Origin: Verrucomicrobiota bacterium
Lineage (GTDB): Bacteria; Verrucomicrobiota; Verrucomicrobiia; Limisphaerales; UBA1096
Assembly (NCBI GenBank): GCA_030749225.1
Contig: JASMKO010000019.1
Coordinates: 140 to 64,139, forward strand
Reading direction: 5' to 3'
DNA length: 64,000 nucleotides
Made by a program: the position numbers and the translations under genes. Numbering within the stretch: position 1 is the stretch's first letter; every line of letters begins with the position of its first letter. The notes beneath the pieces were generated by a model. The model was not told the origin of the DNA. It saw nothing but the letters and a program-made list of their open reading frames with translations, and ran no database searches. Positions 29,918 through 43,802 of this stretch are shown here, one piece after another.

Positions 29918-30397
29918 ATGGACGCACTGCTCAAGCTGCTTCGGGATAACGCCGCCCTGTCCACCGCGGACCTGGCCGGGATGCTGGAATTGTCCGAGGA
30001 GGAAATTCGCGAAAACATCCGCCGGGCTCAGTCTGACGGAGACATCCTCGGCTATCAGGCAATCCTTAGCGACGAGGCCACTGGCCACGACGGCGTGCAG
30101 GCGGTCATCGAGGTCAAGCTGACGCCGGAGCGAGGCGGGGGGTTCAACCGCTTGGCCGAACGCATCTCCAAGTACAACGAAGTCAACTCCTGCTACCTTA
30201 TGTCCGGCAGCTACGACGTGCTGGTGATTATTGACGGCAACAGCCTACACGATGTCGCCTCGTTCGTTTCGGAAAAACTCGCCACCATCGAGGGTGTCAC
30301 CTCCACCGCCACGCATTTCCTGCTCAAGCGCTACAAGGAAAAAGGCGTGCTGATCAGCGGCACGGAGGAGATCGAACTCCTGGCGGTCAGCCCTTGA
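29918..30397 (+). CDS. Lrp/AsnC family transcriptional regulator
   Basis: The N-terminal HTH (LLRDNAALSTADLAGMLELSEEEIRENIRRAQSDGDILGYQA) is followed by an RAM/AsnC_trans_reg domain (VQAVIEVKL...VNSCYLMSGSYDVLVII). The ATG at 29918 is preferred. Confidence 0.8.
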   Translation: MDALLKLLRDNAALSTADLAGMLELSEEEIRENIRRAQSDGDILGYQAILSDEATGHDGVQAVIEVKLTPERGGGFNRLAERISKYNEVNSCYLMSGSYDVLVIIDGNSLHDVASFVSEKLATIEGVTSTATHFLLKRYKEKGVLISGTEEIELLAVSP

Positions 30398-30424
30398 GAT
30401 TGAATACGGCAACCGAACCGTCAT

Positions 30425-31015
30425 TCAGTGATCCTCTGGCGAGATTTCGTGCCCTCTTCGGCCTCCTTTTTTGGCCAGCAACTGCGCCAATGCCTTTTTG
30501 CCGTCAATATCGGTGAATGTAATCCCGCTTCCCCGCCAAATGGCACAATCCAGTGGCGTCCAATGTTTATGATCCAGGGAGTTCACGGCAGCACCGTGAT
30601 CAATCAATAACTCGGCAACAGAGGCGTTCCCTTGCAAGGCGGCGAAATGCAATGCTGTCTGCATGGCGTGAGTCACCCCGTTCGGGTTTGCTCCATTTCC
30701 CAGCAACAACGCCACCAAATCATTTTGTCCCTGAGTCGTGGCGATATGTAGCGGCGTGACCCCAAACTGATTTTGAGCATCAACCGACAAGCCCAAGGCC
30801 ATGATTCTTTTGGCACCATCGGCACCCCCCTTCCTCACAGCCCGGTGGAGCGGAGACTCGGCAGTTGCCGCGACGCTAAAACCGGGCTCGTTCAACCGAT
30901 ATGCCAAGGAAACCGGCTCAGCGGGTTGAACCTTGGTTTCATAATCCGTCACACGGCAACCGGGCAGACTAACCACAAAAACCAATAGAACAAATCTTAA
31001 TAAAATCGATTTCAT
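30425..31015 (-). CDS. ankyrin-repeat lipoprotein
   Basis: The signal peptide carries a lipobox (VVSLPGC). At least three ANK repeats are present (GVTPLHIATTQGQNDLVALLLGNGANPN, QTALHFAALQGNASVAELLIDHGAAVN, WTPLDCAI). Confidence 0.8.
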   Translation of the reverse strand: MKSILLRFVLLVFVVSLPGCRVTDYETKVQPAEPVSLAYRLNEPGFSVAATAESPLHRAVRKGGADGAKRIMALGLSVDAQNQFGVTPLHIATTQGQNDLVALLLGNGANPNGVTHAMQTALHFAALQGNASVAELLIDHGAAVNSLDHKHWTPLDCAIWRGSGITFTDIDGKKALAQLLAKKGGRRGHEISPEDH

Positions 31016-31057
31016 TGAGCCACTCGGCAATCACCCACATTGTCGAACAAATCAAGA

Positions 31058-31083
31058 AGGATCACCCAATGTTGGGTGATCCT
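31058..31083 (-). terminator. perfect 26-bp palindrome downstream of the TonB-receptor gene (probable terminator)
   Basis: aggatcacccaatgttgggtgatcct can form an 11-12 bp stem. On the minus strand it is followed by the U-rich TCTTGATTTGTT. Confidence 0.5.
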
Positions 31084-31156
31084 CAGTTGATGCAGTAATG
31101 GCTGATGAACGGCACGTCGTGCCTGAAACCGCTCATTGCCGGGAGGAACTAATACA

Positions 31157-33457
31157 TCAAAACTGTGATTCAATGCCAAACAGTAACTGCTGAGGCATCC
31201 CAGGGCGTGCCCCCTGGGGCAACCGACCCACAACATACTCTTCATCAAACACATTATGCGCGGTTGCAAACAGATTGGTATTATCTGTAACCGAGTAATG
31301 AAGCGAGAAATCAGATACAAAATAGCTTGGCACCTCCCCATAACGTGAATCGTATTTGCCAGCATAGTTAAACGGGCCGCCTTCGTTAAATCCTGATGCA
31401 TAAGATTCATCGATATATGTACCGTCCAATGCGAGACGGAATTTACCAATTCCAAGGCCAATTCCAACATGGAGTTGAAATTCTGGTATGTATGGAACTG
31501 TGTTACCGTCCTTCGCACCACTGAAAATGCTTTCGCCATCGGCAGAACTTGCACCACTATCAAACTCAGCCTCGGTCCATGTGATACCGACGGTCACCGG
31601 TAAACTGTAATTCGCTCCATTGGCAGCACCGAAGTCATAGCCTGCCTGCAGTTCCAAACCGACCGCGGTAATCTCTCCGTCGTTCGGGCCATTATCGACA
31701 ACAACCGTTTCTCCAACTTCAAACTCCTCAAAACCGGTACCCAGATTGTCCGGCACAATAAAGTCTTCCAGATCCGAGTAGAACAAGGCACCCGTTGCTA
31801 CAAAAGCCTCATCTTGGTAGCGAAATCCTAACTCGTAGCTGTTAGAACTTTCTTCATCAAGAGACTCTCCACTACGAATATATGAACGTGGACCAGGCAA
31901 TGATGCCCCATGATACACCCCGCCAAAAAGATTCAAACCTTCGTAAACATCGCAGGAAAGGCCCAACCCTCCTGTGACAACATCTATGTCCCCAGAACCT
32001 TTTGCAGGTGATTTATCTGATGTACGCGTGTTCTGGTCATATGAGAAATCCAAAAACTCATAGCGAATACCTGGTATCACAGATAGTTTATCATTAATGG
32101 CAACACGATCCTCGAGATATAAGGACCAAGCGTCTGTTTCTTGATGACGATCGCCCGCTGCTCCACTCGGAGCATCCGGACCGGGCGATGACCAACCGCC
32201 TAATTCACCTTGATCATATTTATGATACCATTGGTAGCGGTCAATATCGTCATTATGGAAACGAACGCCTAATTGAATTTCATTCTCCAAAGAACCAAGC
32301 TCCAAATCATAATTCAAAATGGATTCAATGCCTTGTGCTGAATAATCTCGATTATTGGCTTTGAGCCTTATGAATCCAGCACTCTCGCCTTTGATTACAC
32401 TTAGGTAATCATTATTATTCCAAACTTTATATGCGCTTTTCCCAGCTTTCCCATCGGCCAAAGTGCCAACCTTATCCAACTTGAACCAGTTACGGTGGAA
32501 CTTGGTGAAGTAAGCAGTGGTTTTCAATGAAGCGTTGCTTCCCAGTTCAACAAAGTGACGCAGATACCCACGGGAAGCATAGGTGTTAATCATATCGTTA
32601 CGGGTGGCAGCATAGCGGGAATATGGGTTAGCCTTAAAATCTTCATCGGTTATACCCAGATAAGTTTCGTTGGCATCAAAATCAGTACTCCCCAGTTTCA
32701 ATTCAAATGATTGATAGTTTGAAGTGTTGGGCTCCCATGACAATTTGAGCATTGGCTCACTGCGCGTGAAGCCTGTTTCACCATTGACTCCCTGCAATTC
32801 TTTAAAGCCTTCCGTGTTGCGGTAATATCCCTCAACAAGATATCCAACCCTCCCCAAGTCGGTGTCCTTTTTACCACCGTGATAAATGTGACCGACCATT
32901 TCATCATACTCACCATAATAAACCTTTGAGTAAGTAGTGATCTCCTCAGGTATTGGAGTTGAAAGGTAATTAATGGCACCTCCAGTGGTGTGTGGGCCGT
33001 ACTTAACCTGACTCGATCCCTTAACGACCTCCAACCCACTCATCCGCTCCAAGGTCGGGCTGTAGTATGCTGAAGGAGCCGAGTATGGAGCGGGAGCGGC
33101 AAGAATGCCATCCTCCATGATCGTGACCTTGGAACTTCGCCCCATGTCGATACCGCGCAAACTGATATTCGGGAAATTTCCATAACCATCCTCAGGGCGA
33201 ACATAAACACCGGGCACACGTCGCAATGCAGAATTGATATCACTGATCGAGTGAACTCTTAGATCGTCGATATCCAGATAGGTTGCAGAACCGGTAATTT
33301 TTTTTACACCTTCCTTGGAACCCACAATTGCACCGCTCACTAATACGGGATCCAATTCCTCGAAAGTTTCTTCTGCTGCCCCCGTGGTAACTCCGAATGA
33401 ACAAATCCCGGCTACAATTGCCGGGACTGACTTATTGGTATTGAGTTTCGTTCTCAT
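31157..33457 (-). CDS. TonB-dependent outer-membrane receptor
   Basis: There is a signal peptide, a plug domain (LDPVLVSG..., SALRRVPGVYVRPEDGYGNFPNISLRGID, LERMSGLEVVKGSSQVKYGPHTTGGAINYLS), a long beta-barrel and a terminal aromatic residue (...GIESQF). GC is clearly lower than in the neighbours. The ATG at 33457 is preferred over the TTG at 33472. Confidence 0.9.
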   Translation of the reverse strand: MRTKLNTNKSVPAIVAGICSFGVTTGAAEETFEELDPVLVSGAIVGSKEGVKKITGSATYLDIDDLRVHSISDINSALRRVPGVYVRPEDGYGNFPNISLRGIDMGRSSKVTIMEDGILAAPAPYSAPSAYYSPTLERMSGLEVVKGSSQVKYGPHTTGGAINYLSTPIPEEITTYSKVYYGEYDEMVGHIYHGGKKDTDLGRVGYLVEGYYRNTEGFKELQGVNGETGFTRSEPMLKLSWEPNTSNYQSFELKLGSTDFDANETYLGITDEDFKANPYSRYAATRNDMINTYASRGYLRHFVELGSNASLKTTAYFTKFHRNWFKLDKVGTLADGKAGKSAYKVWNNNDYLSVIKGESAGFIRLKANNRDYSAQGIESILNYDLELGSLENEIQLGVRFHNDDIDRYQWYHKYDQGELGGWSSPGPDAPSGAAGDRHQETDAWSLYLEDRVAINDKLSVIPGIRYEFLDFSYDQNTRTSDKSPAKGSGDIDVVTGGLGLSCDVYEGLNLFGGVYHGASLPGPRSYIRSGESLDEESSNSYELGFRYQDEAFVATGALFYSDLEDFIVPDNLGTGFEEFEVGETVVVDNGPNDGEITAVGLELQAGYDFGAANGANYSLPVTVGITWTEAEFDSGASSADGESIFSGAKDGNTVPYIPEFQLHVGIGLGIGKFRLALDGTYIDESYASGFNEGGPFNYAGKYDSRYGEVPSYFVSDFSLHYSVTDNTNLFATAHNVFDEEYVVGRLPQGARPGMPQQLLFGIESQF

Positions 33458-33500
33458 TATTAAATCTTTCAAAAACCGCCTTTTTTGGTGGCAGCGCGTT

Positions 33501-33530
33501 AATAATGGGATTCATTCTCATTAAAGTCAA
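33501..33530 (-). promoter_or_regulatory. candidate promoter with a Fur-box-like element upstream of the TonB-receptor gene
   Basis: The minus strand reads TTGACTTTAATGAGAATGAATCCCATTATT. It has a TTGACT -35-like hexamer overlapping TTAATGAGAATGA, which resembles the ATAATGATAATCA core of the Fur box (about 10 of 13 positions by eye). Confidence 0.3.
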
Positions 33531-33559
33531 CCGCTTTGTAAAAAAATATTTGAATTGGA

Positions 33560-36500
33560 TTAGTTGGCTTTTTTCAAAAATTCGATTAAATCCGCGAAAT
33601 TCTGTTGCGTTAAACCCACCTCCAAGCCATTTGGCATCAGTGATTGATCCAAGCTATATAACGACTCAATTTGGTTTCGGTTGATCGACTGATCCCCTAC
33701 TCCCGGTACTTTAATCTGCAAACTTTCACCAGATTCAGAGCCAATGATGCCCACCAACACCCGACCGTCTTTGAATTCTGCGGTATAGGCAATGTACTTG
33801 GGATCTACTTGACGTGACGGATCAATGACAGAGGCAAGCAGACCCTCACCAGAGCGATCCGTGATTGATCGCAGATCTGGCCCGAGTTGCTTGTCTGGCG
33901 CGTGACACTCGGCACAAAGCTTAGTATAAAACAATAGGCCCGCTTCACTGTTACCTTTCAAGTTTAGTGCAGGCAAAAACTTAGCCACTGCTTCAGCACG
34001 ATCAGGAGAAACTACGTTATCAAAAATGCGCTTGGCCCGCTTCGCTATTGGCTTGCTCCCACTCTTCAACAAACGATCCCGATGAACAGGTGAAAATCCG
34101 TTTGAGGAAATGCGCTTAGACTCTAGTGCATCAATCAGCTCACCTTGCCATGCCGGACGACTAAGCAACACATCCAACGCTTTGCCTCGCTCGTTCGGGT
34201 TTAAGCTTGGCCAAGCGCCAAGCAACATCTTGGCCGACTTAAGCTTTGGTATGTTTCCTACTGCCGCGATCGCATCGTAACGAACAGCCGGATTTTCTAC
34301 TGGTTGAATCAACACAGCCAGGGCAGATACCACCCCATTGTGCAACACACCTCCGCGACTGAGCACTTCGATCGCCTGAATCCTCAGCGGCAAAATTTCA
34401 TCCATGTCGAGTGCTACTTGTCGTGCATTTTTTAGAATGGCTTTCAGCTTGCCTGTTTGTCTTGGAAAGCCGGCTTCGTCCAGCCTAGACAAGTTCACCC
34501 CGGCTTGTCCAAGCGCAATCATCCAAAGCTTGGCCAAATGAAATCTGTCGGCCAAGTTGGCCTTTTCCCAAACGGAATCTAGTTTTTTACTGAGTGCGGC
34601 TTGGTTTTTTTTAATGCCCATTCTCATTAATTCTTCAAAAAACGTTCCGTGCAATGACGACGACGTAAGCAACTGATCGTAATGAGCTGGTGCTGAGCTC
34701 AGGAGAGCCGCTTTCACATATGGAAAATTACTTTCTTCGAAACCTCCGGAAATAAATCGTGCCAGTGAATTGCTAATTTTTTGCTCTGTAAAATGCCCCG
34801 CACTAAACAGCTGCTGGAGTAAGACTTTGTACTCCCCGCCATTCTCTTTTTGGACAGGTGCAAAATCAAAAAACGAAGCCAAATATTTCCCTCCGTTGGG
34901 GATTTTTTCAGACAAACGGAATGCCAAGCGTTGCACGTAGGGATGCTTGTCAGTCAATGCTTGGCCAAGCGTATCGATATCCAGCTTCCCCAGGCCGTCC
35001 AAGGCGGCCAAGGCATGCAATCTGGCCTGTGGAAACTCCGATTGGCTTAGCAGTTGCCTGAGTTGGTTCGCAACCGAACCATCACTTGATTCCACAATCA
35101 ACCGATGCGCCAAGTCGCGAACCGTGCCATTAACCGAAGAAAGATTATCAATCAACTCTGCTGGTTTCTTTTCACTCAACTTGGCCATAGTTCGAAGTGA
35201 CCTACCCTTTGGAACGATACGGTAAATTCGTCCATATGCATCTCCACTGCGGTAGTTTGGACGCAGCTCATCCTGGCCGTTTTTCGGCAACCACTGCGGA
35301 TGCTCGATCATGTATCGGTACATGTCAGCAATCCAAAGCGCACCATCTGGACCGGTACGAGTAAATACAGGGCGACTCCACCGATCCGCCGAGGCATAAA
35401 AATCCTTATCTCCATCGTTGGCGCGCTTGCCGTCGAAAGAAGCCAATTTATCTAGAAGCAATGAATGTTGAACAACGTTGTGAAACGGTTCACAGGTAAA
35501 GGCATGTGTCATGCCATCATCACCGAACAATAATGTATCCCTGTAAATGGATGGACCACAGGCCGAGGTGTAACGTCCACTTTGTTCAAAGCTATGGAAG
35601 CGTTTTTGCGGTGATTTATTCGGGTATACTTTCGGATTGCGGGGTGTACGTATCTGATGACGTGAATCGGGATAAGTCACATCGCTGTTTCGACGGAGAT
35701 AGCGCGCCGGTAAAACATAGTGCCAAAGAGGATGACTGTTTTGCACTCCAAACCAGTTACCCCAATCGTCCCGAACACGACCGAACTGTGATGGTCCAGA
35801 TGTGGCCTCGATCCATCCAGTGCCAGGATTGAATCTAAAATCACCACTTTGGATCGCGACTGATTTGCCACTAATCATCGACTTGATGCTGTTGGCTCCA
35901 CCGTAGCCCCTTACATGGGCACCCGAGGCACAGTGCACGGTATTGTCCAGCCCCCAGTAAAGTCCATTGATGCGAAGCTGTTGGTTGCCTTCGTGAAATC
36001 CTTCAAACAACGTCCGTTGAATGTCGGCCCTGCCATCGCTGTCCATGTCCTCCGCATAGAGCAACACCGGTGCAGCGGCCACGAGCACTCCCTTGCGCCA
36101 CGGCATCACCCCAGCCGGAAACGACAGTCCGTCTAGAAACACGGTTGATTTGTCATAGCGACCGTCACCGTCGCTGTCGGTCACCAAGCGTATCCTCCCC
36201 CCATATTTGCCTTTATTGTCGATCCCCATTGGGTAATCGGCCATCTCTGCCACCCAAAGTTCCCCATCCGCCCCCCAATCGAACGCAACTGGATCGAGTA
36301 CTAGTGGCTCGGCCAAGACCAACTGCAATTCGAAACCCTCCGCCACATGCGTTAGCGCCATGGACTCCTTTGGCGTAAGCGGCTTTACTTCGACGCTTGC
36401 CTGTTTTTGTTTGCGAGGATTGGTCGCACTGAAATGTTTCTGAATTTCTCCCTCCGTCAATGCACGACTGAAAAATGCAATCTCGTCCAATTTACCTCCA

Positions 36501-38497
36501 AATTCCATTAACCCATCTTTCGATCCCCCGAAGATGAGTTTCATTATGTCTGAGGTGTTGTTTTGTTTTGGTTCTCTTCTTTCATCGAGATGTCTCTTAC
36601 CGTTGACCCAAAGTTGATAATTGTCAGGACGGCCAACCAAGACGATATGGTGCCAATGCCTCGGCGAAACGGTAGCTCTTCCTTTCCTTCCAGGGATGAC
36701 CGACAAAACCCGTTCCTCAATATTGGTCATATTTAAGATGCGTAGATTCAATCCTCCTAAATCCGCCACGCATATGTCTTGCCCTTGTTGCGATTTGATC
36801 GCCCCGTTCCAGAGCCAAAACTCTACAGTGAATGCCTCGGCCGCCGGCACCTCAGCAACTACTCGCCCCCCAGCAAAATGCGCCGCACGTGAGGTATGAT
36901 CCTCCTCAACCGCAGGATGCCGATATCCGGGCAAATAAAACGCGACTCCCGGTTCATATCCAGCATCGTGGTTGTTGCCCGTGGCATCAACAGCGGTTGG
37001 CCCGGACTGCTCGCCCAAGCGCCAATACGCAACCGGCTCGGATGCCATTACTGCCCGGGCATACGGCGATAACGGTTCGGTGTATTTCTTTTGGACTTGG
37101 CCGGATGCTCGTTCCAACAGCTTGAGGCAAGACTCGACGATGCGCGGCTCGGCATTGACTTCGAGCCCGGCGGTACGCGCCGGCCAGGTGGTGTAACCGC
37201 CAAGCGCATGCTGCTCAGGTGGCGGGATATAGCCGCTCGCTCCGTTAGCGAGACCGATGTTAAAGGTCAACGGGAGCGGGCTGGCCGACTTGAGTTTAAG
37301 GCCGGTCAATGCATAAACCTCGCACGGGATTGCCATAATCCCAAGATCGCCTATGCGGATCGCCTGGAGCGGCACCTCTTCCACTGGGTTTTCGTGTATC
37401 CAAAGCGCCTGCTCGGCATAAACCTCAGGACGGTTGCGGGGGCGGCTTCCGTCCATTTTGAAAAGCAACTCACGGGCCCACTGGAGGCGATCTTTATCCG
37501 GAGTGCGCCTGAAAAATTCTGATCGGGCCTCGGCCATCCCCAGAGGCACGTCCGTCGAGTAATTAAGTTTGGGCAAGCGGTTCGCCACCATCTCCACAAG
37601 TTGATCTGTATACTCCTGCATCGACCAGCCTCGGCGCTTTTCGCGACTGTAATCGCCCCACCACAGATCGCCACTGGTGCCCTGCGACATGATGCCGACA
37701 AACTCCGCGTCGCCGGGGGCCAACCGCTTGGCCAAGCTCTCCGAGAAGAGCCCTGCGTAATCAGCCGAGACACCCGGGTGACCGCTGAAGTAGTGCATTG
37801 AAAAATTGGCGAGCACTGACAGTGGCCGACCGTCAGCGGTCTGCACGCTCAAAAAACTCAGCCACGGATCAGGTGGGCCCGTGGGACCAACAGCGTTTTC
37901 GTTAACATGACCGGGGTGCATGTTGGCACGCACGGTCTCGTCGCCGAACGGATCGGCCAGTTCGCTCCCCTTGAGGAACGACCATCGGCGACAGGCGGTG
38001 AATTCGGCGGCGTCCACCCGATCCCACGCCGCCCTCGCAGGTTGAAGTCCGGCATTGGCGGCGACAATGACCTCGACCAGTTTGCCCGGCAGAAACGCCC
38101 GGTAGCGGGGATCGAGTCGGCTGCCGAGACAATAATTCATGGCACTTGGTGCGCTGTGCGAGTGTGTCGCTGAAATTAAGATGCGATCGAATGGAATACC
38201 AGTCTTCCCTGAAGCCGTGCGCTTGACCTCGTCGCACAAGTCGCGCGGCAGCATGCAACTGTCCACCACCATGATGGCTAGACGTATCACACGATCATCA
38301 AGCACAAGACATCGTGCGTGCAGCCGATCGATCACCTTGTTGTCGCTCGCCTCAAGGAAGCCGCCGTTTCGAATTACCGGCAAAATCTGCGGCGTAACAT
38401 CCACCTTGCACGCGCCGGCCCGAAACTTCGCCTGCGCCTTGGTTGGCAACCAACCCACAACCAACATCAAGGCAGACAGGATAATAGTGATTTTCAT
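33560..38497 (-). CDS. giant secreted multidomain protein: ceramidase-like N-domain, LamG domain, PVC-type putative dehydrogenase beta-propeller, HEAT-like repeats, C-terminal CxxCH cytochrome c domain
   Basis: The signal peptide is MKITIILSALMLVVGWLPTKAQA. LHARCLVLDD...AIMVVDSCML...ILISATHSHSAPS resembles neutral/alkaline ceramidase N-terminal domains. LDEIAFFSRALTEGEI is a LamG-type tail. FELQLVLAEPLVLDPVAFDWGADGELWVAEMADYP...DSDGDGRYD matches the Pirellula/Verrucomicrobium dehydrogenase domain (TIGR02604-like). CAECHAP...SLMPNGL matches the TIGR02603-like heme domain. Confidence 0.8.
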   Translation of the reverse strand: MKITIILSALMLVVGWLPTKAQAKFRAGACKVDVTPQILPVIRNGGFLEASDNKVIDRLHARCLVLDDRVIRLAIMVVDSCMLPRDLCDEVKRTASGKTGIPFDRILISATHSHSAPSAMNYCLGSRLDPRYRAFLPGKLVEVIVAANAGLQPARAAWDRVDAAEFTACRRWSFLKGSELADPFGDETVRANMHPGHVNENAVGPTGPPDPWLSFLSVQTADGRPLSVLANFSMHYFSGHPGVSADYAGLFSESLAKRLAPGDAEFVGIMSQGTSGDLWWGDYSREKRRGWSMQEYTDQLVEMVANRLPKLNYSTDVPLGMAEARSEFFRRTPDKDRLQWARELLFKMDGSRPRNRPEVYAEQALWIHENPVEEVPLQAIRIGDLGIMAIPCEVYALTGLKLKSASPLPLTFNIGLANGASGYIPPPEQHALGGYTTWPARTAGLEVNAEPRIVESCLKLLERASGQVQKKYTEPLSPYARAVMASEPVAYWRLGEQSGPTAVDATGNNHDAGYEPGVAFYLPGYRHPAVEEDHTSRAAHFAGGRVVAEVPAAEAFTVEFWLWNGAIKSQQGQDICVADLGGLNLRILNMTNIEERVLSVIPGRKGRATVSPRHWHHIVLVGRPDNYQLWVNGKRHLDERREPKQNNTSDIMKLIFGGSKDGLMEFGGKLDEIAFFSRALTEGEIQKHFSATNPRKQKQASVEVKPLTPKESMALTHVAEGFELQLVLAEPLVLDPVAFDWGADGELWVAEMADYPMGIDNKGKYGGRIRLVTDSDGDGRYDKSTVFLDGLSFPAGVMPWRKGVLVAAAPVLLYAEDMDSDGRADIQRTLFEGFHEGNQQLRINGLYWGLDNTVHCASGAHVRGYGGANSIKSMISGKSVAIQSGDFRFNPGTGWIEATSGPSQFGRVRDDWGNWFGVQNSHPLWHYVLPARYLRRNSDVTYPDSRHQIRTPRNPKVYPNKSPQKRFHSFEQSGRYTSACGPSIYRDTLLFGDDGMTHAFTCEPFHNVVQHSLLLDKLASFDGKRANDGDKDFYASADRWSRPVFTRTGPDGALWIADMYRYMIEHPQWLPKNGQDELRPNYRSGDAYGRIYRIVPKGRSLRTMAKLSEKKPAELIDNLSSVNGTVRDLAHRLIVESSDGSVANQLRQLLSQSEFPQARLHALAALDGLGKLDIDTLGQALTDKHPYVQRLAFRLSEKIPNGGKYLASFFDFAPVQKENGGEYKVLLQQLFSAGHFTEQKISNSLARFISGGFEESNFPYVKAALLSSAPAHYDQLLTSSSLHGTFFEELMRMGIKKNQAALSKKLDSVWEKANLADRFHLAKLWMIALGQAGVNLSRLDEAGFPRQTGKLKAILKNARQVALDMDEILPLRIQAIEVLSRGGVLHNGVVSALAVLIQPVENPAVRYDAIAAVGNIPKLKSAKMLLGAWPSLNPNERGKALDVLLSRPAWQGELIDALESKRISSNGFSPVHRDRLLKSGSKPIAKRAKRIFDNVVSPDRAEAVAKFLPALNLKGNSEAGLLFYTKLCAECHAPDKQLGPDLRSITDRSGEGLLASVIDPSRQVDPKYIAYTAEFKDGRVLVGIIGSESGESLQIKVPGVGDQSINRNQIESLYSLDQSLMPNGLEVGLTQQNFADLIEFLKKAN

Positions 38498-38498
38498 G

Positions 38499-41400
38499 TT
38501 AGTTTGGATTTGAAATAAACGCCAGTAGGTCTGCCATCTCAGTCACATTCAAGCCAGCCTCCAGGCCTTCCGGCATGAGAGATCGTCCTGTGTTAATCAA
38601 ACTGGAGATATCCGCCCGAAGAATAATCTGCTGTTTGCCATCGACCCCACGCAGTGTAAAGCCATTGGCTGACTCATCGGCAATCATCCCCGCCAAGGTG
38701 CCGCCATTTTTTAACTGGACCGAGTAGGCGGTGTATTGCTCAGACACATCACGGTTCGGATCAATCGTTCCGAGCAGCAGTGACTGCGGCGACTTGTCAG
38801 TCAGCGACGCCAAGTCTGGGCCAACCGAGTTACCAATCCCTCCCAACTTATGGCACGCAGAACAGCGCGACTGAAAAATCATGCGTCCCTTGTCAGCATT
38901 CCCGTTCAATGTCGTGATATCTGCAAATTGTTTCAAAACATCCGCCCGATTCGCCGCGACGACGGGTTGTAAATTGGCCGGGTTGTTTTTCCGAACGACT
39001 TCGGGCTTGGCAATAACGCGCTTGGCAATCTGCTCAACTTGTTTCACCACAACATCAGGCATGGACGACACGCCAAGCACCGATTTTTCAAACACCGCGA
39101 TATGCGGTAGGCTGGAACTCAGGATGGCAGCGACCTGATATGGATCGGTGTTATCTCGGTGCAACAACTCGATCAAGGCTTCGCCAGCAGCAGGATCGGG
39201 CGACTGACCAAGCGAATAGGCAAGTTGTTGACGTACAAATGGATCGGGATCATCAGCCAGCTTGGTCAAGCGGTCGATCCAATCAGGATCATTTACCCCA
39301 CCCCGCTCTGCTAACCGAATAGCATGACGCCGAACCGCCGGATGAGAATCACTTAACGCCTTCTCCATGTCGCGCTTGGTCAAGCTGCCCAATCCCTCCA
39401 GTGCCGCCAAGGATTGGACACGCGTTTGCGATTGGCCGCCAGATCGAGCCAAACGCCGTAGTTCACGAGCAGCCGTCTGATCCTCTGTCCATCGAATCTG
39501 CTGGTGCGCCAGTTCGCGGAGCGTTCCGTTGGGCGACTCAAGAGCCTTGGCCAAGTATTTACCGCTTAATCGGGTCAAGTCGGGAATAAGTCTCGGTTTT
39601 TTTCCAATCGGCAGCACTCGGTAAATGCGGCCGCGGTTGCTACCGGCCCGGGAGTCGATTCCGGACAGGCGTCCTGGCTGAATCCAACGCGGGTGCTCGA
39701 CCAGAAAGCGATACATGTCCACCACCCAGAGACCGCCGTCTGGCCCAGTTCGAATCTCAACCGGACGGAACCAATTGTCCGTGGACGCCAGAAATTCCGG
39801 CGAAGCCTTTCCCTCCGGGCGATACGCGGAAAAAGTAACCCCCTTTGGCTTTAACTTCAGACGTCGAACGAGGTTGTGCACTGGCTCGCAAACGAAAGCG
39901 TCGCCGTAAAGCTCGTTGCCCAGCAGTGTGTCGCGATACAAGCCCAAGCCGCAGGCAGAAGTCACCCTGTTGATGTGGCTTGGGTCGTTGAAACGTTTCA
40001 GAGGCTGGCTGATCGGAAATACGCGGTTGGCATCCGCGTAACTGGCTGCAACCACGCTCGGGTTGGGCGGTGAAAAGTGTGGGTTCCGACGCAGGTAATG
40101 GTCGACCAACGGATAGTGACGCAGAAGCGTCCCATTGTCGCAGCCGAACCAGTTGCCCCAGTCGTCGCACACGCGCCCGTGCTGGGTCAACCCGGCCAAC
40201 GTCTCGAACGCACCGGTGTCCAGGTTGAACCTGAAGTCACGGCCACGAATATCCACCGACTGACCGCCGGTGAAACCGACGATCTGACCGCCAATGAGGC
40301 CATTCGAGCCGTGCACCCAGCCGTCCAGCCCGTAGGCCAGACTGTTAACGCGCGCCTGATAATTGGTGGTGGCGAAGCCAGAAAACAGAGTGCGCCGGAC
40401 ATCCGCTCGGCCGTCTCCATCAGTATCCTCGGCGTAAAGAATATCAGGAGCGGTACAAACCAAAACACCTTTACGCCATGGTGTGACGCCAGTCGGGAAC
40501 GGCAGACCTTCAAGGAATACCGTTCGCTTGTCGGGAAAACCATCGCGGTCTGTGTCGTCTAAAAAAACGATCCTTCCGCCGGGTTCGTAGCCGCCGTGGA
40601 GGCCCAGCGGATAATCGTGCATCTCAACGACCCATGTGCGGCCGTCCGGGCCAAAGTGGATTGAGACTGGATCGATGACAAGCGGTTCGGAAGCAACCAA
40701 TTCGACTCGCAGACCGGGGTGAATGCGAATCGAACGCAGCGACGCACCAGGCGATTGTGGATTGGTTCCCTCCGTGCCTTTTTTAGACTGAAATGTCGCG
40801 GGTAACTGGCGGTGAATCTCGCTGACGATTTTATCCTCGAGACCGGCAGCCAGTTTTGTCGGGCGATCGTAATAAACCATCGCGCCGACGCCCTCGTAGC
40901 CGCCCTCTCGGAGAATCCGCTCGGAAGGGATGTAGCACGGCGCGTCATTGGCGTAGGCGTTGACCCAAAGCCGCGCGCAGTCGAACTCTCGCTTGAGTCG
41001 CAGCGAGTAATCGACCACCACCTCACCCGGCAGGAAGATCATCGCCAGTTCGCCGCCGAAGCACCATGTCTGGATGGGATAATCAAACTGTGTTTGCAGC
41101 GCCTCGTTCCGGGCGAGTCGGGTGAGTTGCACCCGGGCATGGTAGCCGACAGCGTCCGCGCGCCTGGCCAAACGCTCCCACTCCGCCTTGGGGGGCAGCT
41201 TGCCAAAAGCAAGTTCAACTTGGCCAAGGGTTGTTTTTAGACTACCCGCGAGCGGCGTCATCCCGTCCTTGAGTCGGCGGGCGATTTCGTCGGCGATCTG
41301 CCGGCCCTGTGCCGACGCAGCATCAATGTTGTCACCGGTAACGCCGGTGTCAGGGTTTTGATCCGCGCCGCAGCCAATGGAAACCATGGCCACTGCGCCA

Positions 41401-42122
41401 GGATGATTTTTCTGCAGCCACTCCTGCGCATAGCCGGCCCAGTCCCCGCTAATCTTGTTGTTCGAGAGGGTTACACAATGGCAGGCGTAGCTGGTATAAA
41501 TAGCGCGGATGCCGCCTTTAGCCGTACGGGCGATGAGCACCGGTAAATCGTGATCGACCGGACCATCCTTTGCACGACGGTTCTTGGCAAAACCAACCTG
41601 CCCCGCGCTACCCGGGCTCCACTCGAGTCGACCCGGTTGTAAATCGTCCAATGCCTCAAGCGCGGCCCGTTCAATCCAGGCAGTCAACTTTTCCGTGTAG
41701 CGATCGATGCGACTCTGGTGCGCAACCGGTATCGACCGGCCGAACAGGGTAGGCGTCACGCCCGATAACATCGGCGCGGTATGGGTATGCGTAGCAGTGA
41801 CAGCAAAACGTTCCGGAGCCAGGCCGGTTTGTTCCTTAAGACGCCCCGCCACAGTCTTCACCATCGGCCACGGCACACCAAGATTGTCGACGGTGACGAG
41901 CACCGCCGGACCAACTTCGCCATCGTCAACCGCCAGTGCCTTGGCCCAGATTTTCTGGGTGACCCCCTCCGACTCGGCACGGCGAAAGCCGAACCCGCTC
42001 AACCGCACCGGGAACTCGGGCGTGACATCTACCGACGATGCCCCGATGCTCCACTCCGCGTGGGTTTCAGCGGGCACAAACGCGGCAAGTAGCAGAGCAA
42101 CGACGAACGGAAATGGTCTCAT
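38499..42122 (-). CDS. giant secreted paralog: ceramidase-like N-domain, PVC-type putative dehydrogenase domain, HEAT-like repeats, CxxCH cytochrome c domain (no LamG insert)
   Basis: The signal peptide is MRPFPFVVALLLAAFVPAETHA (ATG 42122 preferred over TTG 42161). Matching blocks are IWAKALAVDDG...LVTVDNLG...FAVTATHTHTAPM, VELVASEPLVIDPVSIHFGPDGRTWVVEMHDYP...DTDRDGFPD and CSACHKLGGIGNSVGPDL...SLMPEGL. Its stop is 1 nt from the start of the next gene (TAAcATG). Confidence 0.8.
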   Translation of the reverse strand: MRPFPFVVALLLAAFVPAETHAEWSIGASSVDVTPEFPVRLSGFGFRRAESEGVTQKIWAKALAVDDGEVGPAVLVTVDNLGVPWPMVKTVAGRLKEQTGLAPERFAVTATHTHTAPMLSGVTPTLFGRSIPVAHQSRIDRYTEKLTAWIERAALEALDDLQPGRLEWSPGSAGQVGFAKNRRAKDGPVDHDLPVLIARTAKGGIRAIYTSYACHCVTLSNNKISGDWAGYAQEWLQKNHPGAVAMVSIGCGADQNPDTGVTGDNIDAASAQGRQIADEIARRLKDGMTPLAGSLKTTLGQVELAFGKLPPKAEWERLARRADAVGYHARVQLTRLARNEALQTQFDYPIQTWCFGGELAMIFLPGEVVVDYSLRLKREFDCARLWVNAYANDAPCYIPSERILREGGYEGVGAMVYYDRPTKLAAGLEDKIVSEIHRQLPATFQSKKGTEGTNPQSPGASLRSIRIHPGLRVELVASEPLVIDPVSIHFGPDGRTWVVEMHDYPLGLHGGYEPGGRIVFLDDTDRDGFPDKRTVFLEGLPFPTGVTPWRKGVLVCTAPDILYAEDTDGDGRADVRRTLFSGFATTNYQARVNSLAYGLDGWVHGSNGLIGGQIVGFTGGQSVDIRGRDFRFNLDTGAFETLAGLTQHGRVCDDWGNWFGCDNGTLLRHYPLVDHYLRRNPHFSPPNPSVVAASYADANRVFPISQPLKRFNDPSHINRVTSACGLGLYRDTLLGNELYGDAFVCEPVHNLVRRLKLKPKGVTFSAYRPEGKASPEFLASTDNWFRPVEIRTGPDGGLWVVDMYRFLVEHPRWIQPGRLSGIDSRAGSNRGRIYRVLPIGKKPRLIPDLTRLSGKYLAKALESPNGTLRELAHQQIRWTEDQTAARELRRLARSGGQSQTRVQSLAALEGLGSLTKRDMEKALSDSHPAVRRHAIRLAERGGVNDPDWIDRLTKLADDPDPFVRQQLAYSLGQSPDPAAGEALIELLHRDNTDPYQVAAILSSSLPHIAVFEKSVLGVSSMPDVVVKQVEQIAKRVIAKPEVVRKNNPANLQPVVAANRADVLKQFADITTLNGNADKGRMIFQSRCSACHKLGGIGNSVGPDLASLTDKSPQSLLLGTIDPNRDVSEQYTAYSVQLKNGGTLAGMIADESANGFTLRGVDGKQQIILRADISSLINTGRSLMPEGLEAGLNVTEMADLLAFISNPN

Positions 42123-42166
42123 GCAGTGGCGGCAGTATGGCCTTGCGGACACCGGGCGCAAGCCGC

Positions 42167-42180
42167 CGCTTGGCCAAGCG
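42167..42180. repeat. complete 14-bp form of the hyper-abundant palindrome (CGCTTGGCCAAGCG) in a divergent intergenic region
   Basis: This is an exact self-complementary 14-mer. It lies about 45 nt upstream of the 42122 start and about 110 nt upstream of the 42289 start. Confidence 0.8.
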
Positions 42181-42288
42181 CGGCAAATTTGGGAGAAAGC
42201 CGCTTTTGGGATTGACCGCAGCCAAGCGCCGGGGCTAATTTAAATGCGCTTTCCACTTGTGGATTAAACCAAAAACGAAACAGAAAAA

Positions 42289-42729
42289 ATGAGTGATAAA
42301 ATTGTTCCCCTAATCAGTTCCGGAACCAAAGGTCCACTGGGTGTGCTGCACCTGCCCCGCCTTTGGCAGAAAGTATCCCTTGAGGCTGCCGGCAAAATCG
42401 CCGATGGCTACCCGGGCATCGGTGCCGGCTACGACGCAATGGTTATAGCTGGGCTCGGACTCGACACCGACGCGGTTCGTGCCCACATCACCAACGACAA
42501 GCCGACCTACCCACAATTTGAGGCGTGGATTCAGGCTCAGGAAGGTGCTAAGTTGGACGCCGACTCCATCAGCACTCTGAACGACTCGATCACCGGCTAC
42601 AACCATGACGACGCCACGCGGCAGGGCATCCTGAGTGCCAACGGCCTCCCGGACGGCGACCCGAAAGACGCCATCAACCTGAATAATCTGGATGACTGGC
42701 TAGAATTTCACGCAGCCGAAATCGCCTAA
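42289..42729 (+). CDS. conserved-looking hypothetical protein (146 aa, soluble)
   Basis: The ATG start is clean, coding bias is strong and a strong terminator follows. No family is recognised with confidence (LHLPRLWQKVSLEAAGK..., PTYPQFEAWIQ). Confidence 0.6.
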   Translation: MSDKIVPLISSGTKGPLGVLHLPRLWQKVSLEAAGKIADGYPGIGAGYDAMVIAGLGLDTDAVRAHITNDKPTYPQFEAWIQAQEGAKLDADSISTLNDSITGYNHDDATRQGILSANGLPDGDPKDAINLNNLDDWLEFHAAEIA

Positions 42730-42944: not shown

Positions 42945-43802
42945 GTGAGCAAAATCAAATTCACCCTCATGGCCTGTGCCGCAGTTGTGGCATTTAACGC
43001 CAACTCGCTGGCCGGCAATCTTTCTGATTCCCTGCCACTAGGCAAAAGCCTGGCAGCCGGGCAGGAACTTCCCCTGCCGCTAGGAATCAGCGCCAATGTG
43101 TTTTTCCTCGAGCAGGACATGGAGGCGCAGTCCATCGCCATTGACATCCCACCGCTGCCGCTGCCCACCGGGCCGCTCCAACTGCCGCCCGGCCTCCCGG
43201 CCCAGACCGCCAAGTTGGAAAGCCGTGCCACCAGCACCACCGCCAAGTTGGATGCATGGGTTCTACCGTTTCTGAACGTGTACGCGGTGGCCGGATACGT
43301 GGACGGTGAAACCACCGCGAGCGGGTTCGCCGTCGGTGGATTGCCGCCCGAGGTGTCCAGCCTGCTGCCCAACTCGTTCACTCTCTCCTACAGCGGGCCG
43401 GTTTACGGTGGCGGCGTCACACTGGCTGCAGGGTTCGATAACTACTTCGCCTCGGTCGATGCCAACTACACCGAGTCCGACCTCGACATCGGCGACTCTA
43501 CCATCGAGGCGTTCATCATTACACCACGCATCGGCGTCACCGGCAGTCTGGGCGGGCTGAACGGCTCGCTCTACGTTGGCGCGATGTATCAGGATGTCGA
43601 TGAACAGCAAAACGGCACGGTCAATTTTCCGATCATGGGGCAGTCGGTGCCAGTCGGCTACGATGTCACCTCGGAAGCTGAGGAAAAGTGGAACTATCTC
43701 GTAGGAGCGAATTTCAAGGCAGGCGGAAGCTGGAATTACGGCATCGAGGCCGGCTTCTCCGACCGCACGCACGTGTTGGCTACGATTAACTACCGCTTCT
43801 GA
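42945..43802 (+). CDS. putative outer-membrane beta-barrel protein
   Basis: The signal peptide is (M)SKIKFTLMACAAVVAFNANSLAG. Beta-strand segments alternate and are rich in G/Y/S/T. The C-terminus is ...ATINYRF with a terminal Phe. The start is GTG. Confidence 0.5.
   Translation: MSKIKFTLMACAAVVAFNANSLAGNLSDSLPLGKSLAAGQELPLPLGISANVFFLEQDMEAQSIAIDIPPLPLPTGPLQLPPGLPAQTAKLESRATSTTAKLDAWVLPFLNVYAVAGYVDGETTASGFAVGGLPPEVSSLLPNSFTLSYSGPVYGGGVTLAAGFDNYFASVDANYTESDLDIGDSTIEAFIITPRIGVTGSLGGLNGSLYVGAMYQDVDEQQNGTVNFPIMGQSVPVGYDVTSEAEEKWNYLVGANFKAGGSWNYGIEAGFSDRTHVLATINYRF

Follow-up and report, generated by a model that had tools for sequence, protein, structure and literature searches.

Organization of the locus

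Two adjacent minus-strand genes, here called A and B, lie in the 64,000-nt window (the whole stretch of DNA analysed) from the 80%-complete genome of a marine member of the Verrucomicrobiota (Table 1). The open reading frame of A spans 38499..42161 (−) and its first ATG lies at 42122; the lengths of 1207 and 1645 amino acids and the one-nucleotide TAAcATG gap are as originally predicted. Both proteins have the same architecture, in which a predicted Sec-like signal peptide (recognized by eye, with cleavage between ...AETHA and EW in A and between ...TKAQA and KF in B) precedes the ceramidase-like head, after which come a propeller matching DUF7133 and TIGR02604, HEAT repeats and a haem domain with a CxxCH motif; a LamG insert is present in B and not in A. 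The original prediction for this gene pair was confirmed in what it observed and partly supported in its interpretation; its domain assignments hold in profile searches (Ceramidase_alk, Laminin_G_3, TIGR02604 and TIGR02603) and all the motifs it quoted (ATHTHTAP/ATHSHSAP, CSACH/CAECH, SLMPEG/SLMPNG) were found. Sequence identity between A and B, highest in the propeller (42%), falls to 37% in the haem domain and 25% in the head, which marks them as old paralogues rather than products of a recent duplication.

The region between A and the divergent DUF5069 gene, presumed to hold the promoter, remains ahead of B at loci from which A is deleted. Terminator-like sites are absent between gene A and the end of the receptor gene that follows B, and the hairpin beyond the receptor gene probably marks the end of the transcription unit.

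Table 1. Features of the gene A/gene B locus (positions refer to the window)
Feature	Position	Strand	Details
Terminator-like hairpin	31057..31084	−	12-bp stem, T-rich tail; 3' of receptor gene
FecA-like TonB-dependent receptor	31157..33472	−	without N-terminal signalling domain; next gene downstream of B
Gene B, B-type ceramidase-like/LamG/DUF7133/HEAT/cytochrome c protein	33560..38497	−	1645 aa from ATG
B haem domain (TIGR02603)	33569..33955	−	CAECH 33902-33916; SLMPNG 33626-33643
B HEAT/helical region	33998..35200	−	HEAT_2; longer than in A; GC3 0.49
B propeller (DUF7133/TIGR02604)	35207..36373	−	profile searches
B LamG (Laminin_G_3)	36440..36841	−	residues 553-686, E 5e-11
B head, ceramidase-fold domain	37082..38428	−	profile and alignments; ATHSHSAP 38147-38170, CRRW 37982-37993, SMHY 37790-37801, PCEV 37316-37327, GYIP 37223-37234, GGY 37193-37201
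A/B junction, TAA-c-ATG	38495..38501	−	1-nt spacer; ...AAC TAA c ATG AAA...
Gene A, A-type ceramidase-like/DUF7133/HEAT/cytochrome c protein	42122..38499	−	1207 aa from ATG; stop TAA 38499-38501; cluster P0005 identical
A haem domain (TIGR02603)	38511..38903	−	CSACH 38850-38864; SLMPEG 38565-38582, candidate axial Met
A HEAT-repeat helical solenoid	38925..39611	−	HEAT_2 59.8 bits; helices 832-1015 of mature model
A propeller (DUF7133/TIGR02604)	39612..40754	−	six-bladed sGDH-like fold, two DxDxDG loops
A head, zinc amidohydrolase domain of neutral-ceramidase fold	40758..42056	−	profile, structure model, alignments; H112, H114 (41772-41795), R182/R183 (41574-41582), H215 (41475-41486), E367 (41019-41030), Y397 (40926-40937), Y409 (40896-40904)
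A signal peptide (putative)	42057..42122	−	MRPFPFVVALLLAAFVPAETHA before EW; from sequence
Divergent intergenic region	42123..42288	.	gene A versus DUF5069 gene (42289..42720 +); presumed promoter region

Heads and chassis

The relationship of the N-terminal domains to ceramidases, as claimed beforehand, withstood comparison by profile, alignment and structure. Gene A scores 37.7 bits against Pfam Ceramidase_alk, above the cut-off of 32.1, and gene B lies slightly below it at 30.6 bits. The only significant PDB matches of the AF2 model of the A head (pLDDT 87.6, pTM 0.90) are the neutral ceramidases 2ZWS, 2ZXC and 4WGK (Foldseek, E 9e-24 to 6e-21, TMq 0.65-0.69), and the head profile matches 2zws at 2e-19 and 4wgk at 1e-15. 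Residues H112, H114, R182/R183, H215, E367, Y397 and Y409 of A, which align to H97, H99, R160, H204, E411, Y448 and Y460 of Pseudomonas aeruginosa PaCD, are invariant in 63 of 63 sequences, the B head included; their counterparts His196, Arg257, Tyr579 and Tyr591 are the catalytic residues of human neutral ceramidase (PMC6952831). Judged by the model, the structural homology between the heads and the catalytic domains of neutral ceramidases is genuine, and the predicted set of zinc and catalytic residues is complete. The ceramidase C-terminal domain was detected in neither A nor B with Pfam or NCBIfam profiles.

For the remainder of the proteins, referred to as the chassis, A matches DUF7133 (E 7e-145), HEAT_2, Cytochrom_C, TIGR02604 (261 bits, cut-off 122) and TIGR02603 (121 bits, cut-off 68), and B matches DUF7133 (E 5e-137), HEAT_2 and, with the same cut-offs, TIGR02604 (240 bits) and TIGR02603 (99 bits). 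In the full-length model of A (pLDDT 84.5, pTM 0.76), the propeller matches structures of the PQQ sGDH family (8RE0, 1CRU, 6JT5, 7CGZ, 3A9G and 3DAS) at ~1e-7 and the C-terminus matches the c-type cytochrome 7ZS0. The proposed C-terminal haem domain has intact haem motifs in both A and B, and among 101 A-type proteins the C..CH motif and the methionine of SLMPEG are (nearly) invariant. The sequence profile of the chassis is remote from sGDH, neither A nor B matches Pfam GSDH, and PqqC was not found in this genome nor in 147 of 151 genomes of the phylum. PQQ might be scavenged, as it is in E. coli. The label “dehydrogenase” for the propeller reflects only the predicted resemblance of its fold to PQQ sugar dehydrogenases. 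This genome encodes at least 18 DUF7133 proteins with interchangeable heads (ThuA, GDSL, DUF6807, FG-GAP, F5/8C and ceramidase-like), paralogues carry LamG, CBM_4_9 and F5/8C modules, and in one paralogue a cupredoxin replaces the haem domain, a swap that would be expected of an electron-transfer tail.

Variation of the locus within the genus

Four states occur at one syntenic site across the genus: A with B, A with a short B, B without A, and a short B without A. The short B ends just past LamG, after ...GKLDEIAFF... (36470-36487 in gene B), and so comprises head and LamG, with propeller, HEAT repeats and haem domain lost; it is still under purifying selection despite this loss (dN/dS 0.08-0.25 versus 0.09-0.12 for full B). 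In one relative (L007), B carries the signal peptide of A because A has been deleted in frame. The constant unit within the genus is the B head with LamG plus the FecA-like receptor, which comes after B at all ~15 related loci whose contigs reach that far, an order that persists even where A or the chassis is gone or the receptor allele has been replaced.

The head (with LamG) is an autonomous unit, to which gene A in its entirety and the chassis of propeller and haem are optional add-ons in a labile locus, and the A/B tandem is therefore a lineage-specific state and not an obligate two-protein machine. The duplicate arrangement stressed in the original prediction stands insofar as tight spacing is kept where relatives have both genes (L011, L013 and L010, with TGAcATG, TGAaATG and, in one, 7 nt), but sister species lack gene A or the propeller and haem of B. 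Similarly, adjacency to a TonB-dependent receptor holds here and throughout the genus but no further, as outside it no A-type or B-type gene adjoins a TonB receptor and receptor homologues elsewhere have no ceramidase-like neighbours.

Distribution of the family

The placement of a ceramidase-like head on a dehydrogenase/haem chassis is not unusual but widespread in Planctomycetota and Verrucomicrobiota, where 90%-identity clusters contain over 2,500 proteins of A-type and over 1,250 of B-type; among the best 80 A-type heads in species genomes, 67 are fused to a propeller. The fusion is not new, and by sequence the two types form two old orthogroups, whose thousands of members are already annotated with no function assigned. 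NCBI names them [quoted passage not shown] or “PVC-type heme-binding CxxCH protein”, and JGI uses “putative membrane-bound dehydrogenase-like protein”. In the literature, we found no mention of DUF7133 and no substrate, cofactor or activity for any ceramidase-like/DUF7133 fusion. The chassis is indeed common in PVC genomes, but the accompanying claim that it is functionally uncharacterized needs amending, since Lac161_ORF7 has been assayed (PMC5342196) and another paper describes the family as a putative glycoside hydrolase (PMC7397252). That single biochemical report on the chassis concerns lactose hydrolysis, not oxidation, which runs against a redox reading (PMC5342196).

Heads and redox proteins are also linked without fusion. 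A chassis gene precedes a head gene at one locus (L088), a head overlaps a GFO_IDH_MocA gene at another (L014), a third head is flanked by two DUF1080 genes plus GFO_IDH_MocA (L086), and two are divergent from c-type cytochromes (L095 and L103). One standalone head adjoins a GH127-LamG gene.

Functional interpretation

With somewhat better than even confidence, we propose that A and B are anciently diverged, Sec-exported periplasmic enzymes of a large Planctomycetota/Verrucomicrobiota family that couple hydrolysis to a subsequent redox step. Each would consist of a zinc amidohydrolase that has the neutral-ceramidase fold and its catalytic residues but no ceramidase C-terminal domain, a propeller with six blades and the fold of soluble sugar dehydrogenases, and a HEAT-repeat arm bearing a mono-haem cytochrome c. 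The substrate would enter the periplasm, the probable route in this genus being the neighbouring receptor, and the head would cut its N-acyl or amide bond, while LamG would assist B in binding a glycan or glycoconjugate; the propeller would then carry out a redox reaction on this substrate or on the product of the head, and the tethered cytochrome c would pass electrons to the respiratory chain. Such a hydrolyse-and-oxidise pathway is plausible. Channelling from head to chassis is conjectural and unproven, since heads persist under purifying selection without a chassis in cis or adjoining, and hydrolysis consequently does not need the redox part.

We consider it unlikely that the protein is a deacylase combined with a glycosidase, in which it strips N-acyl groups, the DUF7133 propeller cleaves glycosidic bonds as a beta-galactosidase-like glycoside hydrolase, and the haem domain serves another purpose, for example sensing or docking. 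Purified Lac161_ORF7 (TIGR02604, HEAT and cytochrome c) did release glucose from lactose with a Km of 1.8 mM (PMC5342196), but this is one report with a coupled glucose-oxidase read-out, for which no follow-up was found in the literature. The listing of the family among putative beta-propeller glycoside hydrolases (PMC7397252), the LamG, CBM_4_9 and F5/8C modules of paralogues, the head beside the GH127-LamG gene and the lack of PQQ synthesis (PqqC not found) all fit such an enzyme; however, the nearest fold is that of PQQ sugar dehydrogenases, and a conserved covalent electron carrier, with a cupredoxin in one paralogue, is hard to square with a plain hydrolase.

It is quite improbable that the locus serves iron or micronutrient acquisition, with B head, LamG and receptor importing and then hydrolysing an amide chelate such as an acylated or citrate-type siderophore, and chassis electrons reducing the metal. 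FecA is the nearest solved relative of the receptor (E 7e-24), but its best NCBIfam match, a TonB siderophore-receptor subfamily, stays under the cut-off (162.7 versus 223.5 bits), no riboswitch or any other Rfam element was found, and iron-related neighbours are missing both here and beside its 38-48% homologues. An amide-cleaving head would suit siderophore amide bonds and the receptor invariably follows B in the genus, yet the B-type family as a whole occurs without such receptors, and ThuA, GDSL and lectin heads on the same chassis point to carbohydrates.

That the heads are true ceramidases, hydrolysing algal, animal or bacterial ceramides or glycosphingolipids while the remainder handles the sphingoid base or sugar, is very improbable even though the fold, every catalytic residue and, for A, the Pfam threshold agree with it. 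Identity to PaCD and ASAH2 is just 15-19% in structural alignments, the Pfam match covers only profile positions 2-230 of 509, the NCBIfam neutral-ceramidase equivalog reaches 22 bits where its cut-off is 1200, and the gene context is sugar and redox, not lipid. Because the head has ~430 residues versus ~500 in neutral ceramidases, roughly 70 fewer, the loops able to form a lipid pocket may differ. Scarcely credible is the view of the heads as non-catalytic binding modules on an ordinary PVC haem protein, given seven invariant catalytic and metal residues, A-type heads 55-65% identical between phyla and a dN/dS of ~0.1.

Comparison with known systems

As putative amidohydrolases on a redox chassis, A and B share their domain order with the “PVC-type heme-binding CxxCH protein” of the databases and are plain members of its two orthogroups. 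Relatives in Gemmataceae, Pirellulales, Tepidisphaerales, Schlesneria, Chthoniobacteraceae and others have A-type heads 60-65% and B-type counterparts (with LamG) 55-66% identical to those described here. Planctomycetal A-type proteins mostly measure ~1400-1900 aa with extra haem-domain matches, whereas gene A is a minimal 1207-aa form, and the A/B tandem beside a TonB receptor is confined to this marine genus.

The catalytic-domain fold, zinc ligands and catalytic His, Arg and Tyr are common to the heads, PaCD (2ZWS/2ZXC), human ASAH2 (4WGK) and PF04734; besides their low identity and missing C-terminal domain, the heads differ from neutral ceramidases in being fused to a propeller and cytochrome, and in B also to LamG. 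Lac161_ORF7 (GenBank AGW45552), from a Chthoniobacter-like soil cosmid, has the same chassis (TIGR02604, HEAT_2 and CxxCH cytochrome c) without the head, and is the sole chassis member with a published assay (lactose hydrolysis; Cheng et al. 2017, PMC5342196). The six-bladed propeller fold of A recurs in Acinetobacter calcoaceticus sGDH (1CRU/1C9U) and in the PQQ domain of Coprinopsis cinerea pyranose dehydrogenase (6JT5), an enzyme whose own cytochrome domain follows the same logic of a propeller tethered to a one-electron carrier. Unlike sGDH-fold quinohaemoproteins, A and B lack a GSDH match, their genome yielded no PqqC, and the electron carrier they have is a class-I cytochrome c borne by a HEAT arm.

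Other architectures of the superfamily are ~450-aa standalone heads, ~730-aa fusions of head and alpha/beta-hydrolase, and ~900-1050-aa double-head proteins, with heads 35-63% identical to A and 46-56% to B. None has a propeller or haem in cis, and the short B belongs with this chassis-free group. The double-head proteins place two heads in one chain, whereas at this locus the two heads are encoded by neighbouring genes.

Four states of one locus within the genus

The main new result of this analysis is a survey of one syntenic site in 24 other species genomes of the genus, where an FG-GAP gene, a 285-aa open reading frame (ORF) and a DUF5069 gene are followed, in divergent orientation, by an optional gene A, gene B, the gene for a FecA-like TonB-dependent receptor (hereafter, the receptor) and an optional ankyrin-repeat gene. 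Four states of the locus occur (see table), with either a full-length or a short gene B, each with or without gene A. The short B forms are frames of 685–727 aa that consist of the ceramidase-like N-terminal domain (the head) and LamG and end right after the latter (...GKLDEIAFF.RAL...N, followed by the stop codon), a clean loss of the propeller, HEAT repeats and haem domain, which together form the chassis. We rejected short B as a decaying pseudogene, since its frame is intact in at least eight lineages and dN/dS of head and LamG lies at 0.08–0.25 among short forms versus 0.09–0.12 among full forms. A maximum-likelihood tree of head and LamG needs three changes between full and short forms; deep nodes lack resolution, and the loss of the chassis may have had a single origin. 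At L007 (positions 10001-10070), where full B stands alone, gene A is deleted in frame with its upstream region retained, and gene B starts with MKPFPFVVALLLVTFAPAETHA followed by EFRAGA, i.e., the signal peptide of A joined to the mature N-terminus of B, the break lying inside the shared E(W/F)xxGAxxVDVTP segment.

The receptor gene follows gene B at all loci whose contig extends that far (about 15), and the constant unit is therefore the head and LamG of B plus the receptor, with gene A and the chassis of B optional; head and LamG are autonomous. An obligate A and B pair is ruled out by the four states, so that the coupled duplicate arrangement, which the original prediction had read as pointing to a periplasmic hydrolyse-then-oxidise pathway, turned out to be a dispensable, genus-specific state. 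The genus thus offers a natural dissection (full pair, subsets, or head and LamG only) with a constant receptor type, which marks the redox chassis as accessory and singles out head plus LamG, to be taken first, and the receptor as experimental targets.

The position after the receptor is a variable cassette slot: the ankyrin gene is present at L007, L113-L115, L117 and L120 and is absent or replaced in other relatives, by AMP-binding, PP-binding and radical-SAM genes at L010 and by AP_endonuc_2 at L013. On the 83-kb contig of L013, the genes for MetH, the S8 peptidase, FG-GAP and gene A (595 + 616 aa) are each split in two, which looks like frameshift errors of long-read assembly rather than biology. 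At the other end of the site, the 285-aa ORF keeps its synteny in all relatives examined.

Features and locus states (coordinates without a prefix are window positions; L, loci in other genomes; C, contigs of the window's own genome)
Feature or state	Location	Strand	Remarks
Gene A	42161..38499 (frame), first ATG 42122	-	1207 aa
Gene B	38497..33560	-	1645 aa, ATG start
TonB-dependent receptor gene	33472..31157	-	downstream of gene B
Terminator-like hairpin, strong	31084-31057	-	after receptor gene
Ankyrin-repeat gene	30425-31030	-	201 aa, beyond the receptor's terminator
285-aa ORF	42945-43802	+	no Pfam match; syntenic with DUF5069 and FG-GAP genes in relatives
A-like-head genes (813-841 aa) in two planctomycetes	L074:7063-9501; L094:7369-9891
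Third ceramidase-like gene, two pieces	C25:9-674 and C97:46267-47061
State A + full B	window, L032, L011/L033
State A + short B	L010 = L119, L013, L118
State full B alone	L007, L116, L117
State short B alone	L111, L113, L114, L115, L120; probably L112, L121

Gene organization and domain content

In the window, the stop codon of gene A and the start codon of gene B are separated by 1 nt (TAA-c-ATG), and the DUF5069 gene lies upstream of gene A and is divergently transcribed. The terminator scan gave no terminator-like sites between gene A, gene B and the receptor gene, the promoter scan returned fewer promoter-like sites (4) than expected by chance (8.9), and the sole stand-out of these scans was the hairpin after the receptor gene. 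Indirect support for a putative co-transcription of the three genes comes from the spacing of 1 nt, which is conserved, and from the absence of a terminator inside the unit. The upstream region of gene A contains the palindrome CGCTTGGCCAAGCG (~42170), which corresponds to the TTGGCCAA signature. GC3 declines along the putative operon (30000-42200), with values of 0.67 in the A head, 0.59 in the A haem domain, 0.68 in the B head, 0.50 in LamG, 0.49 in the B HEAT repeats, 0.47 in the B haem domain and 0.43 in the receptor, which could mean that the 3' part is foreign or that codon usage is relaxed. Since the DNA of the receptor gene is 93–97% identical to that of L011/L033, whereas the neighbouring A and B genes are only 71–88% identical to the same contigs, and since GC3 of the receptor compares with 0.77 in the housekeeping neighbours MetH and S8 peptidase, a recent exchange of receptor alleles between lineages is suggested.

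Profile searches recovered every domain that the original prediction had named in A and B, including the LamG of the longer paralogue (Laminin_G_3, residues 553–686, gene B only), the C-terminal CxxCH haem domains and the adjoining TonB-dependent receptor, and we hold the domain-level statements on both proteins with high confidence. Ceramidase_alk (PF04734) scored 37.7 bits in gene A, above the gathering threshold of 32.1, and 30.6 bits in gene B, just under it, with matches that span only the first 100–230 of 509 profile positions. The chassis was detected by DUF7133 (PF23500; E 7e-145 in A, 5e-137 in B), TIGR02604 (261.3 and 239.6 bits, cut-off 122.2), HEAT_2 repeats in both products and the TIGR02603 haem domain (121 and 98.8 bits, cut-off 68.15). 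Both proteins have the CxxCH haem motif (CSACH/CAECH) and a distal Met in SLMPEG/SLMPNG, and CxxCH and the SLMPEG Met are (nearly) invariant across 101 A-type proteins. Their signal peptides, as read from the sequence, look Sec-type (cleavage at ...AETHA/EW and ...TKAQA/KF). A and B are old paralogues, with propellers that are 42% identical, haem domains that are 37% identical and heads that are 25% identical; a recent duplication was rejected because of the low identity of the heads and their separate orthogroups, each spanning phyla.

A ceramidase fold in the head

The A head was modelled with AlphaFold2 on 62 homologues (pLDDT 87.6, pTM 0.90). Significant PDB matches of this model were limited to neutral ceramidases, namely 2ZWS and 2ZXC from Pseudomonas aeruginosa and human 4WGK (E 9e-24 to 6e-21, TMq 0.65–0.69; next-best other structures no better than 7e-3), which also lead the matches of the full-length A model, and the head sequence profile found the P. 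aeruginosa and human enzymes at 2e-19 and 1e-15. The predicted zinc ligands H112, H215, E367 and Y397 in gene A numbering (H97, H204, E411 and Y448 in the P. aeruginosa neutral ceramidase) and the predicted catalytic residues H114, R182/R183 and Y409 (H99, R160 and Y460) are invariant in 63 sequences including the B head. Among their counterparts in the human enzyme, His196, Arg257, Tyr579 and Tyr591 are considered critical for catalysis (PMC6952831). Model and alignment together point to a ceramidase-fold zinc hydrolase with an intact catalytic set, in line with the originally proposed ceramidase relation of the N-domains.

A sugar dehydrogenase-like propeller

The full mature A protein (1185 aa) was modelled on a 101-sequence alignment (pLDDT 84.5, pTM 0.76). 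Foldseek matched its propeller to six-bladed structures of the PQQ-dependent soluble glucose dehydrogenase (sGDH) family (8RE0, 1CRU, 6JT5, 7CGZ, 3A9G and 3DAS at E 2e-7 to 5e-5, TMt 0.46–0.59; also 1C9U) and its C-terminus to the c-type cytochrome 7ZS0. Pfam GSDH (PF07995) had no match in A or B and weak matches in three paralogues only, and the matches of the DUF7133 profile to 2G8S (3e-4) and sGDH (5e-3), which cover only a portion of the domain, are too weak for mapping PQQ-binding or catalytic residues. In the genome of the window (3.08 Mb, 80% complete), pqqC (TIGR02111) had no match, and of 151 genomes in the phylum, 4 had a match that exceeds the cut-off; a PQQ-dependent reaction would thus call for uptake of external PQQ, unless the propeller acts in another way. 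In Escherichia coli, PQQ is imported by PqqU/YncD. The idea of the receptor as a PQQ importer for the propellers found no support and was dropped, as a PDB search to E=1 gave only FecA, an enantio-pyochelin receptor and one unnamed receptor.

Distribution of the fusion

Genes A and B are an ordinary pair in a very large family of PVC bacteria (Planctomycetota, Verrucomicrobiota and relatives) that already has database annotations but no assigned function, and there is no new architecture at this locus. Among long proteins, the A head had at least 2,564 matches, of which nearly all the best ones listed combine PF04734 and PF23500 (60–65% identical in Gemmataceae and other planctomycetes), and the B head had 1,254, nearly all with PF04734, Laminin_G_3 and PF23500. 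More than 7,500 standalone heads (~450 aa) are 55–63% identical to A. Clustered at 50% identity, the head superfamily falls into 23,417 groups (E <= 1e-3; 3,297 at E <= 1e-30), none of them characterised except true ceramidases. Checked across species-representative genomes, the predicted head-propeller fusion proved widespread: of the 80 best loci, 67 join the head to the propeller within a single frame, and 11 encode a standalone head. Their hosts range over Verrucomicrobiota and numerous orders of planctomycetes. Some of these planctomycetes are in culture, for example Schlesneria sp. T3-172, so that bench work on A-type genes is feasible.

DUF7133/TIGR02604 proteins are among the largest function-unknown families of Planctomycetota and Verrucomicrobiota. 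The chassis had been described as functionally uncharacterised, which holds for the ceramidase-like/DUF7133 proteins as annotated by NCBI and JGI, without function, but not for the family as a whole, since lactose hydrolysis has been reported for Lac161_ORF7 (PMC5342196). In the literature searched, no paper mentions "DUF7133", and nothing relevant was found on bacterial amidases that resemble ceramidases or on regulated "membrane-bound dehydrogenases" of PVC bacteria.

Other head arrangements include double-head proteins (P0062, P0021 and P0130) with two A-like (~900 aa) or two B-like heads (~1050 aa) and, in two planctomycetes, proteins of 813–841 aa in which a single A-like head is clear (42% identity) and whose genes lie immediately upstream of one for an A-type fusion. 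The window's genome has a third ceramidase-like gene, 42–46% identical to the A head and split over two contig ends. Of 24 genomes of the genus, at least 12 carry an orthologue of it (frames of ~675–750 aa), a wider spread than that of A or B.

Possible functions of the locus

Several unfused heads adjoin redox genes: at L088, a chassis gene is directly followed by a head gene; at L014, the head gene overlaps a GFO_IDH_MocA oxidoreductase gene; at L086, the head lies between two DUF1080 (3-keto-disaccharide hydrolase) genes adjoining GFO_IDH_MocA; and at L095 and L103, heads are divergent from c-type cytochrome genes. Other unfused heads adjoin GH127-LamG or a sulfatase. As the partner families are abundant in PVC genomes, this tendency of heads and redox partners to adjoin is suggestive, not statistical. 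We tentatively favour hydrolysis and redox chemistry acting on one substrate. The substrate would probably arrive through the TonB receptor, the head would cleave an N-acyl or amide bond, LamG would assist by binding a glycan or glycoconjugate, the propeller would carry out redox chemistry on this substrate or on its product, and the tethered cytochrome would pass electrons to the respiratory chain.

That the locus encodes a deacylase plus a glycosidase seems unlikely. The sole biochemistry on this chassis is the release of glucose from lactose by purified Lac161_ORF7 (AGW45552; TIGR02604, HEAT and cytochrome c; Cheng et al. 2017, PMC5342196), because of which the chassis family has been termed a putative beta-propeller glycoside hydrolase (PMC7397252). 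However, among the at least 18 (about 20) DUF7133 proteins in the ~3-Mb genome of the window, which carry interchangeable heads (three ThuA, four GDSL, DUF6807, FG-GAP and F5/8 type C) or lack a head, one paralogue with ThuA and GDSL heads (C57:32212-36219, L026) ends in a cupredoxin (Copper-bind) instead of cytochrome c. Such a swap of one single-electron carrier for another would suit an electron-transfer tail, and a redox role of the chassis is therefore kept as more likely.

Less likely again, the head would be no amide hydrolase at all but the zinc partner in an oxidative (3-keto) route of glycan breakdown in which the propeller oxidises the sugar; electrons from the haem-linked propeller could then enter respiration and the zinc head, like the ThuA and DUF1080 modules that occur on or beside the same chassis, could process the activated keto-sugar. 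If true, the family would represent respiration-coupled, non-hydrolytic glycan dismantling in the PVC periplasm, and the four natural locus states would show its dispensable parts.

An iron-chelate uptake unit is improbable. The receptor has plug and barrel domains and FecA as its best PDB relative (E 7e-24), but there is no Rfam element in the window between 30000 and 43500, no riboswitch ahead of the receptor, and no iron-related gene next to the receptor in the window or next to its 38–48% homologues. These homologues also lack ceramidase-like neighbours, and A-type and B-type genes outside the genus have no adjoining receptor in the loci examined. A true ceramidase is very improbable: the heads share the fold, but are not ceramidase orthologues, given their 15–19% identity, the partial Pfam match, the missing C-terminal domain (no PF17048 match in A or B, where the head leads to DUF7133 or LamG, respectively) and the NF041649 neutral-ceramidase equivalog (22 bits for gene B against a cut-off of 1200, no match for gene A). 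A pseudo-enzyme head is scarcely credible, with the predicted catalytic set intact.

Comparison with known systems

Compared with FecA, the match of the receptor begins at FecA residue ~114–137, so that the N-terminal signalling extension is absent, and its score on the FecA equivalog is far under the cut-off (107 versus 1100 bits), as it is also under that of the siderophore-receptor subfamily. The propeller has a fold similar to that of the PQQ domain in the pyranose dehydrogenase from Coprinopsis (6JT5), and A and B have the TIGR02604, HEAT and cytochrome c architecture in common with Lac161_ORF7. Relative to the neutral ceramidases 2ZWS, 2ZXC and 4WGK, the heads have kept the catalytic N-domain fold and residue set despite their low identity.
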